A DNA stretch of 64,000 nucleotides, taken from a virus (lineage: Duplodnaviria; Caudoviricetes). Position 1 is the stretch's first letter; the number at the start of each line of letters is the position of its first letter. This document shows, in pieces, positions 1,607-23,746 of the stretch. The stretch lies in IMG/VR virus record IMGVR_UViG_3300016657_000022, positions 1 through 64,000 of that record. One strand, 5' to 3'. The notes under the pieces were generated by a model. The model was not told the origin of the DNA. It was given only the letters and a program-made list of their open reading frames with translations, and did not search any database. The translations under genes and the position numbers were made by a program.

Positions 1607-4270
1607 CTAGGCAGCTTCTGCCATTGCCTTCTCGACAACACCGAAAATCTCGTCCTCGGTGGCGTCGTTGGGAATAGTGATCTCGGTCTTCCAATTAGGA
1701 TAGAAGATACCAAGTTCACCGCCCAGCTTTACTTCATCGTGCTGAATATCAGGCAGTTCCTGCCACTTCACAGCCGTAACGAGATTGTCGTTGGCGTATT
1801 TCACCGCCTTAATATCGTCTCGGATGAGGAAGTATTGAGCGTCATGGATCTGAGCACATGGTTTGATGTCAAGCCTAAACTTGCTCTTGCGTACTTTTCC
1901 ATTGAACTCAACACCTGCTCGACTGTTGAGAAGACAGTAGGATTGTCCCAAGGCATTTCCAGCAGTTCGACCCTCGGCCTCGGCCTGATGAGGAGTCTTG
2001 CTGGTTCCACGCACCACTTGGTGCAGGAGGGGCGTGCGAAGACGCAGCCCGAATGCAATGGTGACATAGCCATCCTTCGTTGCCTGATCGAGCTTAGCAG
2101 CGACCCATTGGTCACTGACCACATACAGCTCGTGGTATTTCGCCTCGACCGACTTCGCCTTCTCCTCCGAGAAACCGCAGTTGACCATTAGCGTCTTGTA
2201 GGTGCCCTGATACGTCAGGGCGAAGGTGGGAGCCTTGCTGTCCTGACGATAGGATTTGTACTTCTTCTCGATGGAATTGATGCTGACCACCGATGTGGGG
2301 TCGATGTCCGGCATCTCATCACCCCAGTAAGCATAGGCCCGGAGGCTGTGCCCATCATAGCCATCGGTATAGACCTTCAGCTTGTTGGGATCCTTACTGG
2401 TGAGGGCGGAAATCCTGTCTTCCAGAGAGGCAAAGTCCAGTCCCACGAACAACCATCCGGGGGGTGCCTCGAAACAGCTCTTGATGAGCTTGGCGTACCG
2501 GCTGGATGCTGGCAGGTTCTGGAGGTTCGGGCCACTGGACGAAAGCCGACCACTCTTGGTGCCCCCGAGGTTGAAGTTCCCGAACAGATAGTGCCATCCG
2601 TCGTTGCCACGCTGAGCGTTCTTGAGCGACGGGATGAAGTCCGTGATGATCTTGTTCACGGCCTTGTAGTCTTCCAGTGCCTTCAGGAACTGGAGGATGT
2701 CCGGGTCGGACGTGTGCTTCTGCAATGCCTTAATGGCATCGCCGTCTGCACTTGGCTGCTTGCTGTCGGTGTACCCGACGATAGGAAGCCCGAGGATCTC
2801 GAACAGAAGCTCCTGCAACTGGGGTGCCGAGTTCGGGTTGAAGGTGGTTTCCTTCCGTGTTGGTTCATGGGTGAGCGCCAGCTCAGCCATCTCCTCAACG
2901 GTGATCGACTTCTTCTTCCACTCAGCATTCTTCTTGTTCGTGTAGTGCTCAAGCCGGGTGTAGTTGTATTTCTGCACCACCTGTGTGGCAAACATCTCAC
3001 GGACTGTTCGGTCCTGCTCGATGGTCAGCTCTTCTTCCACCTCCAGCACACGCTTCATGTTCACCGGCATCCCGGTGAGCTGCATCTGAATGATGTCGAT
3101 GGTCGCTGGCTGAAACAGCTCACGATACACTGGAAGCTGGTCGTCCTTGACCAGTTGATCCCAGTGCTTGTTATAGACATACCATGTGCTGAGACTATCC
3201 ACCAAGTTATATTGGAGGAGGGTCGGCATCGGGATCTTGGTGATGTCCTTGATCTCTTCGACCGCGTAGTTCCCAGCGAACTCCTGAGCCTGATCCTTCA
3301 GGCCAAGCTGATTGCCAGCACAGGAGTTGGTAGCCAGATAGGTGATGAGCTTGGTGCAATCCCACTCACCAACATCGCCAAGCATGACCTCCAGCCCATA
3401 GAGCAACCCCTCTTGATCGAGGATGTGTTCCATGAAGAGCTGATAGATCAGGACGTAAACGTCGAAGGCGATGTTGTGCCACATGATCTTGACGCCCTGC
3501 TCTCGACACAGCTCGAAGAACCGTTTGAGCATGGCACGACGTGTGGGGCTTGGGCGCCTGAAACCATAGGTGCCGTCAGCCTCAGCAGCCATAGGACTGA
3601 AGACGCTGTGCGGATGGTAATCGACCGGGAAGGCCAATCCCTCTCCTTGGTTCCAAGCGAAGCTGATGGTTCCGATACCGCATTCCCAGTGCTTCAGGCC
3701 GAAGCCTTCGATGTCAGCGGCAAGGGGCTTGCCCATCTCCAGCAGCTTGATAAGCCACTGTTCGATGTCATGGTCGGTGTCGGGATAGTGAGCCTTCTTG
3801 ATGACCGACTCACCCGGTGGTGCATATTTACCACACCGATGATCGAACACGGCTTTGATGCCCTGTGCGATCTTCTCCTTCGTTGGTCCGGGATTGTGGA
3901 AGATCTGTGCCGAACTGGGCACATACACCACCTTGAAGTTCCCAAACGGGCTGTCCATCACATAGCCCAGATGGGCTTCGATCTTGGACGCCTTGGTCAG
4001 AGCTTTGAAATACTCGCCATCGGTGCAGATGACGTACTCGACCATCATGTCGGTGAATGTCGGGACCAGCATCTCCGTGATGTAGGACCGCATCTCAACC
4101 ATCGGGGTCTTCTTCCCAGTGCGGTGCAGGTCAATGACCAGCACATCATCCGGGACCAGCTCCGGGGTATTGAGATAGGCGGTCCTGATGTCATCCTTGC
4201 GGATGGTTGGAACCAAGAGGCAGACTGGATACCTGCCAAGCTCTGTGTCGGAGAAATAGGCGTACCGCAT
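1607..4270 (-). CDS. Family A DNA polymerase with 3'-5' exonuclease domain (N4 gp39-like)
   Basis: 887 aa; exo DIEGFG, TKSGRLSSSGPNLQNLP, motif A GLDFASLEDRI, motif B KAPTFALTYQG, motif C QIHDAQYF. Confidence 0.97.
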   Translation of the reverse strand: MRYAYFSDTELGRYPVCLLVPTIRKDDIRTAYLNTPELVPDDVLVIDLHRTGKKTPMVEMRSYITEMLVPTFTDMMVEYVICTDGEYFKALTKASKIEAHLGYVMDSPFGNFKVVYVPSSAQIFHNPGPTKEKIAQGIKAVFDHRCGKYAPPGESVIKKAHYPDTDHDIEQWLIKLLEMGKPLAADIEGFGLKHWECGIGTISFAWNQGEGLAFPVDYHPHSVFSPMAAEADGTYGFRRPSPTRRAMLKRFFELCREQGVKIMWHNIAFDVYVLIYQLFMEHILDQEGLLYGLEVMLGDVGEWDCTKLITYLATNSCAGNQLGLKDQAQEFAGNYAVEEIKDITKIPMPTLLQYNLVDSLSTWYVYNKHWDQLVKDDQLPVYRELFQPATIDIIQMQLTGMPVNMKRVLEVEEELTIEQDRTVREMFATQVVQKYNYTRLEHYTNKKNAEWKKKSITVEEMAELALTHEPTRKETTFNPNSAPQLQELLFEILGLPIVGYTDSKQPSADGDAIKALQKHTSDPDILQFLKALEDYKAVNKIITDFIPSLKNAQRGNDGWHYLFGNFNLGGTKSGRLSSSGPNLQNLPASSRYAKLIKSCFEAPPGWLFVGLDFASLEDRISALTSKDPNKLKVYTDGYDGHSLRAYAYWGDEMPDIDPTSVVSINSIEKKYKSYRQDSKAPTFALTYQGTYKTLMVNCGFSEEKAKSVEAKYHELYVVSDQWVAAKLDQATKDGYVTIAFGLRLRTPLLHQVVRGTSKTPHQAEAEGRTAGNALGQSYCLLNSRAGVEFNGKVRKSKFRLDIKPCAQIHDAQYFLIRDDIKAVKYANDNLVTAVKWQELPDIQHDEVKLGGELGIFYPNWKTEITIPNDATEDEIFGVVEKAMAEAA

Positions 4271-4809
4271 CAGTAGATGAGCCTCGCTGCTGCATAGAAC
4301 TCGATCCGCTCAAGCATGTCGTTGAACTGCTTGGTGGCTCGGGTGTCGTTGGAGATGGAGCAGCCGACTTCCCCCTGACGGGGGAGCGACCGCAAGGCCG
4401 GGATCATCTCTGCCAGACAATCCGGGAGGGTGTCCCGCATGGTCTGAAGCTCCTCGCAAGGCGAGAGCAGTTTGAAGATGATCTGTCCGATGAGCTGTTC
4501 CTCTTCCGAGACACGCTTGGCGCTCTTGAGGTGCCACTCCATCTTGGCTTCGAGGGTTTCATGCAGGATGGGACGGGTGCCCGCTCCACCTGCACCAGCT
4601 ACCACGGTGAAGGCAGTCGAGGTATAGACCTCACCTTCGTACATGAAGCTGGATGACTGAACGACCCGGACCTCGTTGTTGGCCCGGATCAGATCGGCAA
4701 GGGACTTGTCGAGACGACGCTTCTCGGCAACGAACAGATCCTCAAGGAACTGCTTGATGAGCTGGTAATAGCTCGACCCCTTGCGGGGCATCTTCAGTGA
4801 CGGGTTCAT
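4270..4809 (-). CDS. N4 gp38-like hypothetical protein
   Basis: 179 aa ORF between helicase and DNAP, TGATG-coupled; C-terminal TMRDTLPDCL...RLIY. Confidence 0.75.
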   Translation of the reverse strand: MNPSLKMPRKGSSYYQLIKQFLEDLFVAEKRRLDKSLADLIRANNEVRVVQSSSFMYEGEVYTSTAFTVVAGAGGAGTRPILHETLEAKMEWHLKSAKRVSEEEQLIGQIIFKLLSPCEELQTMRDTLPDCLAEMIPALRSLPRQGEVGCSISNDTRATKQFNDMLERIEFYAAARLIY

Positions 4810-22424: not shown

Positions 22425-23021
22425 TCAGCCGAAAGGGTTCTTGTCGCCCATCAGCATCATGAGCATGAGCGGGTTCATGGCACCGGCTGCACCGCCGCCG
22501 AGACCGCCTGACAGCATGAGCATCGGGAGCATGTCCTCGAAGTTGCCCTTGTCGCCGGTCATCATGCTCATCATCATGAGCTGGCCCATGTCCATGGAGC
22601 CACCTTCCGAACCGCCGCCGAACAGGTTCGTGAACGACTTGATGATCGTCACGCCCTTCTCGATGCCCATCATGTTGACCTTGGTGGGCAGGAAGCGGGA
22701 GCTGTGGCCTTGCACGTTGAGCGTGCGGAGCGAACCGGACTCGGTGACTTCCTGAATGAAGCCGTATGCCTTCTTCTCGCTGACGAGAATGTCGCCGGTC
22801 TTCACCTGCGATACAGGCGTCAGCATGGCGAACGCCGGGATGTCCATTCCGAAGAAGTCGAGCGGGTTCTTGCTCAGGCCCTCACCATCGAACGTGACGA
22901 TGCCGGTGCCGGTCTTGATCCCGGTCAGGCCGGTCTGGAGGTCGTAGCTCACGTTTTCGATGGGCTGGATCATGGCCGACATTGCGGTGGCCATCTTGCT
23001 CTTCATATCCTTGAACATCAT
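22425..23021 (-). CDS. Phage protein with Met/Gly-rich C-terminus
   Basis: 198 aa, AGGAG RBS; IPAFAMLTPVSQVKTGDIL...MLPMLMLSGG...NPLMLMMLMG. Confidence 0.8.
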   Translation of the reverse strand: MMFKDMKSKMATAMSAMIQPIENVSYDLQTGLTGIKTGTGIVTFDGEGLSKNPLDFFGMDIPAFAMLTPVSQVKTGDILVSEKKAYGFIQEVTESGSLRTLNVQGHSSRFLPTKVNMMGIEKGVTIIKSFTNLFGGGSEGGSMDMGQLMMMSMMTGDKGNFEDMLPMLMLSGGLGGGAAGAMNPLMLMMLMGDKNPFG

Positions 23022-23044
23022 GCTTCTCCTGCGTCATTGATGGG

Positions 23045-23520
23045 TCGGAATTGACCCAAGGAAAGGGGAATAAACTGAGTGTGCTGCTGGACGCCGTTGT
23101 TCCCATTAAGCCAGTCTCGTCTGACTCACACACCCCATGCCCAGCCGGTCCCTGACGGTTTGCAAGGATCCTTGACCAGACAGGCATGGCCTCGGGTCCG
23201 TCGAACGGTTTCCCTCGGTCTAACTGTAAAGGGTGGCAGGGAACTCTAACCTGCGTCACGTCCTCCCGCTTTTTAGCACGGGACACCCTAGCACGGACAG
23301 CTATTATGGGCCGCTTACGGTTTCGCCCATCGGGTGGTCGCCGTCTGTCCATGTCTCTATTTGGTTCCCCCGCCCAGCTTCTGCCTCGGGGTTCTGGCGC
23401 GTAAACACATCTGGGCTTGCGGCTTCGACAGAGCTTCCCTGTCTAGGCAGTCCTGCATTAACGTCTTAGTCCACCAGCATCACCGAGTTGAACTGCGGTG
23501 GGATAGCCTCGGGGAGACGG
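23045..23520 (-). ncRNA. Candidate large ornate noncoding RNA (~480 nt)
   Basis: More than 12 helices, a long-range helix, a possible pseudoknot and GNRA/UUCG-type loops; no credible ORF. Confidence 0.55.
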
Positions 23521-23544
23521 GAAGAGGACATTACTGATCTGGTA

Positions 23545-23661
23545 TGGCAGCCGTGGATGGACTCGAACCACCGACTATCTGGCCCGTCATCCTTAGTGAA
23601 GGCGCCTTCACGCACAGGATGCTGCTAGGGTTTCGTGCTCTACCGACTGAGCTACACGGCT
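23545..23661 (-). ncRNA. 117-nt tRNA-like RNA with acceptor, D and T arms and CCA but no canonical anticodon arm
   Basis: AGCCGTG/CACGGCT-G-CCA; TA-GCTC-AGTCGGTA-GAGC-A; GGTGG-TTCGAGT-CCATC; 63-nt insert between the D and T arms. Confidence 0.8.
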
Positions 23662-23675
23662 ATACCAATCTCGAT

Positions 23676-23746
23676 CTATATGGCCGGTGGGTTTGAGCTG
23701 AGCCTACCCACAAGAGCCGTCAAATGCTGGCCTATCGGCCATATAG
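23676..23746 (-). ncRNA. Candidate 71-nt small RNA
   Basis: 11-bp closing stem CTATATGGCCG/CGGCCATATAG; inner GTGGGT/ACCCAC stem. Confidence 0.45.

Follow-up and report, generated by a model that had tools for sequence, protein, structure and literature searches.

A candidate new family of small structured RNA in the RNA islands of wastewater and freshwater phages

Phage tRNA islands are usually annotated as tRNAs and empty space. Large ornate RNAs of the GOLLD and ROOL classes, which occur in phages and bacteria, often lie beside tRNAs, and the tRNA cluster of phage T4 specifies two small stable RNAs, species 1 and species 2, of unknown function. In the island described here the "empty" part holds a small structured RNA, which we regard as a well-supported candidate for a new RNA family of narrow distribution, and not as a giant ornate RNA. 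Like GOLLD and ROOL, the region is phage-encoded, adjoins tRNA-type genes, contains many helices and is free of ORFs, but its conserved unit is ~172 nt long as against 500-800 nt, and the remainder consists of separable modules. T4 species 1 and 2 are likewise structured non-tRNA RNAs within a phage tRNA operon, presumably processed together with the tRNAs; the phage group and host are unrelated. In Alphaproteobacteria and some phages tmRNA takes a two-piece, circularly permuted form (RF04321, RF01849; PMC9004378). Two-piece tmRNA and the RNA described here are found in the same RNA islands, both are pseudoknotted, both have a CCA-like end followed by a spacer hairpin, and they share an upstream leader; the core of the RNA described here differs in that it has neither a T-arm nor an acceptor stem containing G3-U70 and shows no conservation of a tag frame or stop.

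The phage, its relatives and the noncoding stretch

The window that we analysed is a stretch of 64,000 nt (positions 1 to 64,000 of IMG/VR record IMGVR_UViG_3300016657_000022). The source record is 73.5 kb long, is rated complete, and represents an N4-like phage. An RNAP2-type polymerase subunit is encoded at 25766-24954 (PHROG 2051), and a very long ORF is present at the right end of the window. The closest cultured phages are Schitoviridae of Rhizobium and Sinorhizobium, whose RNAP2 proteins are 56-61% identical, and these nearest rhizobiophages have no RNA island at this place. The region of interest lies at 23045-23520 (hereafter the stretch), and a search of the INPHARED phage collection gave no DNA match. 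The phage belongs to an uncultured N4-like clade, the hosts of which are probably Alphaproteobacteria. Genes from position 1 to ~32500, including all those near the stretch, are on the minus strand, and the features of the island are listed in Table 1.

Table 1. Features of the RNA island and its surroundings in window coordinates
Feature	Position	Strand	Remarks
Ig-like protein gene	24431-23859	-	First in minus-strand order toward the stretch
Terminator-like hairpin	23841-23818	-	Between Ig-like protein gene and leader element
Leader element, ~65 nt	within 23668-23745	-	Conserved, upstream of tRNA mimic
tRNA mimic	23545-23661	-	Rfam tRNA 42.9 bits; upstream neighbour of the stretch
Core RNA ("module A"), ~172 nt	23361..23532	-	Sole unit of the stretch present in every relative
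Helix I	23529-23524 with 23456-23450	-	Closes the 5' domain; 100% of cells paired
Helix II	23519-23515 with 23466-23462	-	90% of cells paired, one double change
Helix III (2 bp), conserved 3x3 internal loop (YUA/GAA) and hairpin IV	23422..23448	-	Comparative
3' pseudoknot domain	23362..23416	-	Found in the window and 12 other loci, changes compensated
Helix V	23416-11/23377-72	-	Outer helix, 5-6 bp; 4 versions
Hairpin VI	23398-96/23385-83	-	3-4 bp; 5 versions
Well-supported pseudoknot, loop VI with tail	23391-88 with 23370-67	-	4-5 bp; then AACCA (23366-62)
Candidate second pseudoknot	CUUCCC 23524-19 with GGGAAG 23439-34 (hairpin IV loop)	-	Three complementary versions
Spacer hairpin	23293..23352	-	Directly after core AACCA; closing stem differs in L008 and L016
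Small tRNA-like three-way element	23232..23288	-	GGGUG...CACCC, two hairpins, the second T-arm-like
GA-motif hairpin block	23185..23226	-	93-95% identical in L002 and L008; flanking genes 66-82%
Insertion stem	23189-83 with 23141-35	-	Holds variable insert
3' block	23083..23134	-	Hairpin 23126-21/23114-09, AUGGG (23106-02), second hairpin, CCAGCAGC (23090-83)
Long-range helix	23469-23478 with 23092-23083	-	9/10 pairs in the window
Leader of 198-aa gene	23022-23072	-	Hairpin 23058-53/23046-41; ribosome-binding site 23030-24
198-aa gene, Met/Gly-rich tail	22425-23021	-	Downstream of the RNA in most loci

The comparison set consisted of the window and 12 related loci (designated by L numbers). 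Loci L005-L015 were reached via homologues of the 198-aa protein, L016 was added from metagenome contigs by DNA patterns, and L030 came from a protein-profile scan. Searches with two exact motifs and with two gapped patterns yielded L002 alone among viral contigs and L016 alone among metagenome contigs, and their matches in genome contigs and in L017 are attributable to chance. The known range of the family is thus wastewater and freshwater phages, with 13 loci and additional variants in sequencing runs. An RNA island precedes the 198-aa gene in every locus, and in relatives it includes genuine tRNAs. The 198-aa protein itself has a beta-rich N-terminal part ahead of its Met/Gly-rich tail and matches no family in Pfam or PHROG. 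Its predicted fold (pLDDT 66) has no PDB match at E 0.001 or better, matches only uncharacterised phage proteins in BFVD, and gave nothing in the fold search that points to an RNA-binding partner; related proteins are also encoded by Bacillus phage G and by jumbo phages whose hosts are Vibrio and Rhizobium.

The original prediction, made from the letters of the window alone, held that the stretch lacks a credible gene, and this was borne out: 23022-23547 contains only short or unconserved ORFs. The 156-aa ORF at 23352..22882 matches nothing in Pfam or PHROG and is not kept in L008, where the DNA is 82% identical, and the conserved 8-nt word CCAGCAGC falls in different reading frames among relatives. 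We rejected protein coding on the grounds that the ORFs of the stretch have no family match and are not kept in L008. The further claim that the stretch is packed with helices does not hold by energy alone, as neither strand folds better than shuffled sequence (minus-strand minimum free energy -185.8 against a shuffle mean of -185.4, z -0.05; plus-strand z +0.29). The evidence for structure comes instead from comparison with relatives. Short blocks are 93-97% identical between the window and L002, compared with 66-77% for the flanking genes, and are separated by inserts that differ greatly in length and sequence. The stretch is thus noncoding and under selection, and the evidence supports a structured RNA beside a tRNA-like gene, on the sense strand of the operon and outside the families of Rfam.

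Structure of the core RNA

The core, which recurs in eight loci, keeps its length exactly in five. A covariance model of the core (R1), built from six full copies, scores 172-191 bits in the window, L002, L006, L007, L008 and L016, partial copies stand at contig ends in L005 and L015, and weak full-length matches on the right strand of the same island occur in L012 and L009 (E 0.003-0.008). L011 contains another full-length copy; it was recognised by reading the sequence and reaches no more than 5.7 bits (E 2.5) with R1. An HMM built from the core copies of L009, L011 and L012 (the group-2 HMM) matches L008 and the window in return, and it also finds the 3' domain alone in L014 and L030.

We derived helices I-VI of the core from RNAalifold together with pair counting in six full copies. 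In the resulting model 94.9% of cells are paired, as against 33-43% when the partners are slid, and seven pairs are changed on both sides, where the slid controls give 0-3. Covariation scores 0.291 in the model and 0.139 in shuffles, of which 0 of 500 reached the observed value; the statistics are nonetheless modest because the number of independent lineages is small (about three close clades and four distant forms). The core helices thus covary among relatives. The G-U pairs (16 cells) favour the minus strand as that of the RNA, with 97.7% of cells paired there as against 90.2% when the plus strand is read.

Individual helices vary in ways that keep their pairing. Helix I contains one pair that changes from C-G to G-C between clades and has GACCC/GGGUC as its equivalent in L009. 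Helix II encloses a variable hairpin (23500-23481) that is represented by other sequences in L005, L002 and L007. Helix III occurs as GC/GC, UG/CA, CC/GG, GG/CC, GGU/ACC, GGA/UCC and AGGG/CCCU, and hairpin IV, which shows an A-U to G-C switch, keeps its architecture through four versions.

The 3' domain follows one plan in 13 of 13 loci, namely a helix, a hairpin, its loop, a single G, 4-5 bases complementary to the loop, and an invariant AAC. Loop VI reads (A)GA(A/G)-N4-5-GA in all 13 loci. The loop and tail pair as CCCC/GGGG, CCGGU/ACCGG, CUGGU/ACCAG, GCACA/UGUGC or CGGU/ACCG, and in only 1 of 120 permutations are all five versions complementary, which we take as strong evidence for a pseudoknot between loop VI and the tail. 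No strand other than the loop of hairpin VI was found to be complementary to the bases before the CCA, and a terminal CCA follows the pseudoknot in 8 of the 13 loci. A second pseudoknot, between the 5' strand and the loop of hairpin IV, is suggested by three complementary versions at a similar place (CUUCCC/GGGAAG, CCUCAC/GUGAGG and GUGCA/UGCAC), each of which has a 6-29% probability of arising by chance.

Every helix named in the original prediction is present in the window where it was placed, and the relatives divide these helices into those that persist and those that do not. One of the two helices that had been proposed to cross, GCCCAG/CUGGGC (23411-16/23372-77), shows compensatory change. 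The other, CUGCCU/AGGCAG, fails in L002, L006 and L007, and covarying alternatives take its place, namely a 2-bp helix (23447-48/23422-23) and a hairpin (23396-98/23383-85). The pseudoknot is therefore unsupported in the form in which it was proposed, and the one between loop VI and the tail was found instead. From these comparisons, the core is a compact, conserved RNA with at least one pseudoknot, of an undescribed family absent from Rfam. Its combination of invariant loops and compensated helices is typical of ribozymes, riboswitches and protein-binding RNAs.

Modules around the core

Downstream of the core, the remaining ~300 nt contain, from 5' to 3', a spacer hairpin, a tRNA-like three-way element, a GA-motif hairpin, an insertion stem and a 3' block, and each of these five modules has comparative support as a structure. 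Among the stems originally predicted here, AUGGACAG/CUGUCCGU, CCAUGCC/GGCAUGG and AGUCAG/CUGGCU are all backed by compensatory change in relatives, and GGGUG/CACCC is conserved in L008 and L016. The helix UGGGUC/GACCCA is also real, but it belongs to the leader of the downstream gene rather than to the RNA: L005 and L006, from which the middle modules are missing, still have it, and this leader is 100% identical in the former and 87% in the latter. In all, six of the originally predicted helices are supported.

The modules differ among phages in presence, size and order. The three-way element is conserved in L008, is ~150 nt larger in L016 and is replaced in L002. The GA-motif hairpin undergoes concerted G-to-A changes on both sides in L002 and is located downstream of the 3' block in L016. 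Four versions of the insertion stem pair (7, 8, 8 and 5 bp) around inserts of 41, 57, 86 and 4 nt, and the insert in L002 is tRNA-like (Rfam tRNA 25.2 bits, below threshold). The 3' block is 96% identical in L002 and L008, and its hairpins stay paired through changes in L008, L016 and L006; it is present in only five of eight close relatives, and L005 and L007 have the core without it. In contigs of runs X10 and X16, a natural deletion of 132 nt (23227-23358) joins 23226 to 23359 and removes the spacer hairpin together with the three-way element. The first two modules are replaced in L002, and in L011 only a long hairpin follows AACCA. As judged from this variation, the ~300 nt outside the core are independent modules that are exchanged, lost and re-ordered among phages.

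In L009 the acceptor piece of the tmRNA ends in CCA and is followed by a spacer to which the spacer hairpin of L016 is 86% identical. Copies of this ~60-nt hairpin are found at L030 3287-3351, L016 (reverse strand) 2070-2128 and L009 485-543, and it looks like a mobile or reusable RNA module. The sites at which it was seen are the tmRNA spacer, the position after the core RNA, and a third place.

The behaviour of the modules bears on the earlier picture of one ~480-nt RNA of the GOLLD or ROOL kind, closed by the long-range helix 23478-69/23092-83 and carrying variable peripheral domains. We consider this picture improbable, since the unit that recurs is only the 5' 172 nt and the rest is a mosaic of modules. 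The closing helix has 9 of 10 pairs in the window and one compensatory change in L002 (U-A to C-G), an 8-bp counterpart in another register can form between the equivalent regions of L016, and the peripheral stems bear variable inserts, as they do in large ribozymes. However, the helix is reduced to 3+3 pairs in L002, the block that contains its partner is absent from L005 and L007, which have the core without it, and the GA hairpin of L016 lies outside the supposed closure. In addition, a local hairpin that competes with the long-range helix covaries equally well, and in L006 the same word pairs with a downstream partner instead. Because the downstream modules behave as separate units, the long-range helix cannot belong to the core fold, although it may form in the window's own lineage.

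Upstream of the core, the tRNA mimic has 59 nt in place of an anticodon arm. In runs X16 and X6 the same tRNA scaffold carries 19 or 18 nt in place of 60 nt of the mimic (23576-23635), which gives an anticodon arm of normal size, and one of these variants resembles the anticodon loop of Asn (GUU). The mimic thus resembles a tRNA gene that has had its anticodon arm exchanged for other sequence. It is not a constant neighbour of the core, being absent from L006 and from another contig of run X6. The stem of the ~65-nt leader element covaries (GUGGGU/ACCCAC, GUGGAU/AUCCAC and GUGGAC/GUCCAC), and this leader may serve the stable-RNA operon either as a promoter-proximal RNA or as a processing signal. 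In L006 it immediately precedes the core, and in L009 the tmRNA.

Comparison with described RNAs and possible mode of action

Consistent with the original prediction, Rfam 15 contains no family that matches the stretch at gathering or permissive thresholds, and the same element in relatives likewise matched no family at either setting. The GOLLD (RF01998) and ROOL (RF03087) models gave no match even at E 10. Within 23022-23547 nothing scores as a tRNA with RF00005 or ARAGORN; only the neighbouring mimic does, and with RF00005.

As the two-piece tmRNAs are the RNAs most similar in setting, we considered in some depth whether the core derives from one. No tmRNA model matched the region, the whole genome or close relatives at E up to 10, and ARAGORN called neither a tmRNA nor a tRNA in the region, the mimic included. 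The same tools do detect tmRNA in L009, L011 and L014, which have bona fide permuted tmRNAs of the alpha type (79-93 bits), and L030 has a tmRNA by nhmmer (1.5e-99). The helix before AACCA encloses a 33-nt loop and no T-loop, unlike the tRNA-like domain of tmRNA. A tag frame was rejected as well: by eye, the frames that follow AUGGG end differently in each relative, and the frame of CCAGCAGC varies. Finally, the 3' pseudoknot domain co-occurs with tmRNA in L009, L011, L014 and L030, and the whole core does so in L009 and L011. Because a real tmRNA stands beside the 3' domain in four loci, the RNA is not a variety of tmRNA and does not take its place either. We therefore rejected derivation from tmRNA, with which the RNA has only the mobile spacer hairpin in common by nhmmer.

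Models of other RNAs did not match either. The RNase P model (RF00010) found nothing in the genome or the region at E up to 10. The motifs CAGAACCCC and GCCUAGAU resemble motifs of RNase P, but the hairpin loop that contains CAGAACCCC pairs with downstream sequence, a topology other than that of P4, the helix between CR-I and CR-V, and RNase P was rejected. Y RNA and YrlA systems have a gene for Ro60 (TROVE) close by, usually together with RtcB, and neither protein had a match in the genome.

Two structural likenesses of the 3' domain deserve mention. As in HDV-like ribozymes, whose fold is a nested double pseudoknot that includes P2 and has a catalytic C in J4/2, an outer helix encloses a 3-bp hairpin whose loop pairs directly 3' of the helix, so that counterparts of P1, P3 and P1.1 are present. 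The domain differs from these ribozymes in that no conserved P2 partner was seen by eye, there is no P4 or J4/2, and the pseudoknot has 4-5 bp instead of 2; Rfam ribozyme models gave no match on the stretch. The second likeness is to the tRNA-like 3' ends of plant viruses of the TYMV type, in which a hairpin loop also pairs with the strand directly before (A)CCA and the paired segment is stacked on an adjacent helix, with almost no break between their 3' strands. In contrast to the TYMV type, the core lacks anything equivalent to the T, D and anticodon arms, a single base stands between its two 3' strands, and two bases instead of one precede the CCA. The CCA, moreover, varies among loci, and the element lies inside the transcript of a DNA phage. 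That the core is a new class of functional RNA in a phage toolkit for translation and RNA processing, whether a self-processing, HDV-like ribozyme that trims the stable-RNA operon or a mimic of a tRNA 3' end (a pseudoknotted minihelix with ACCA at its end), seems to us rather doubtful. A tRNA 3'-end mimic, if that is what it is, could engage a host enzyme acting on tRNA ends or a defence system that targets tRNA.

The island might instead consist of decaying remnants of tRNA or tmRNA genes that have no function of their own. It does hold tRNA-like fragments, relatives have intact tRNAs or tmRNAs at corresponding places, and the three-way element has a degenerate hairpin resembling a T-arm. We nevertheless regard decay as very improbable, given that the core resembles neither tRNA nor tmRNA, that its blocks are more conserved than the flanking genes, and that its single-stranded motifs stay invariant and its helices compensated even between forms that can hardly be aligned.

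The reading to which we incline, with confidence only a little better than even, is that of a stable-RNA island in which a ~172-nt core of a new family is released and acts in trans, accompanied by accessory modules. The core would be co-transcribed with the neighbouring tRNA-like genes in a unit that starts after the hairpin at 23841-23818. It would then be excised from the operon transcript to give a small stable RNA whose end may lie at AACCA, and the released core would act in trans on the machinery of translation or RNA processing. This reading draws on the tRNA-type elements, substrates of RNase P, that flank the core, and on the strong hairpin that always comes after AAC(C)(A), as at the acceptor CCA end of the L009 tmRNA; the L016-type spacer is homologous to that of L009, yet it is also present elsewhere. 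Further points in its favour are that L016 keeps the RNA without the 198-aa gene and that the distance to this gene varies from about 20 to 340 nt. Weighing against it are the unremarkable folding energy and a terminal CCA limited to 8 of the 13 loci. Only one run is a true metatranscriptome, and its coverage is confined to 22816-23033, in the neighbouring gene; the other runs labelled "RNA" are probably DNA.

The main rival to a processed RNA is a cis-acting leader of the downstream operon, whether riboswitch-like, a protein operator or an antitermination element, that controls the 198-aa gene and the genes following it. In 12 of 13 loci the element lies upstream of this gene and in the same orientation, no terminator was found between the two, in L014 and L030 only ~20 nt lie between the end of the 3' domain and the ribosome-binding site, and the terminator-like hairpin upstream suggests that the RNA heads a transcription unit. 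Against this, unrelated modules intervene over the variable distance of ~20 to 340 nt, among them a tRNA-like element in L008, L016 has the RNA without the gene, another ORF lies between them in L009, and no alternative pairing with the ribosome-binding site was seen. On balance, control in cis appears unlikely to us, though less so than the ribozyme and tRNA-end readings.

For a processed, trans-acting core, the company that it keeps would be of interest, as the tRNA mimics, two-piece tmRNAs and hammerhead-like motifs nearby may represent a phage toolkit that acts on host translation and RNA processing. Hammerhead-like cores (CUGAUGA, a stem and GAAA) occur in the same islands of relatives as the core RNA, at L030 ~4470-4520, in L014, and at L002 8335-8374. 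Those of L030 and L014 are directly behind the tmRNA, with stems that would give a type I hammerhead, and that of L002 scores 27 bits with Rfam Hammerhead_3, below threshold. These motifs may process the 3' ends of stable RNAs.

Several other elements were seen in the islands of relatives. Permuted tRNA-like modules, in which a T-arm is followed by the acceptor 3' strand, the acceptor 5' strand and a D-arm, are present at L030 ~3185-3260 and L002 8740-8840, the latter with a YrlA-like match that, at 22 bits, stays below threshold. Group I introns (L008 1265-1505, 77 bits; L014 639-896, 68 bits) are present in relatives within the RNAP2 gene or near it. The tRNA-like element of L008 (~4420-4490), between the 3' block and the 198-aa gene, is small, was called by neither ARAGORN nor Rfam, and has a 7-bp acceptor stem with G3-U70, a good T-arm and ACCA; at the matching place, L013 has a tRNA-Ala.
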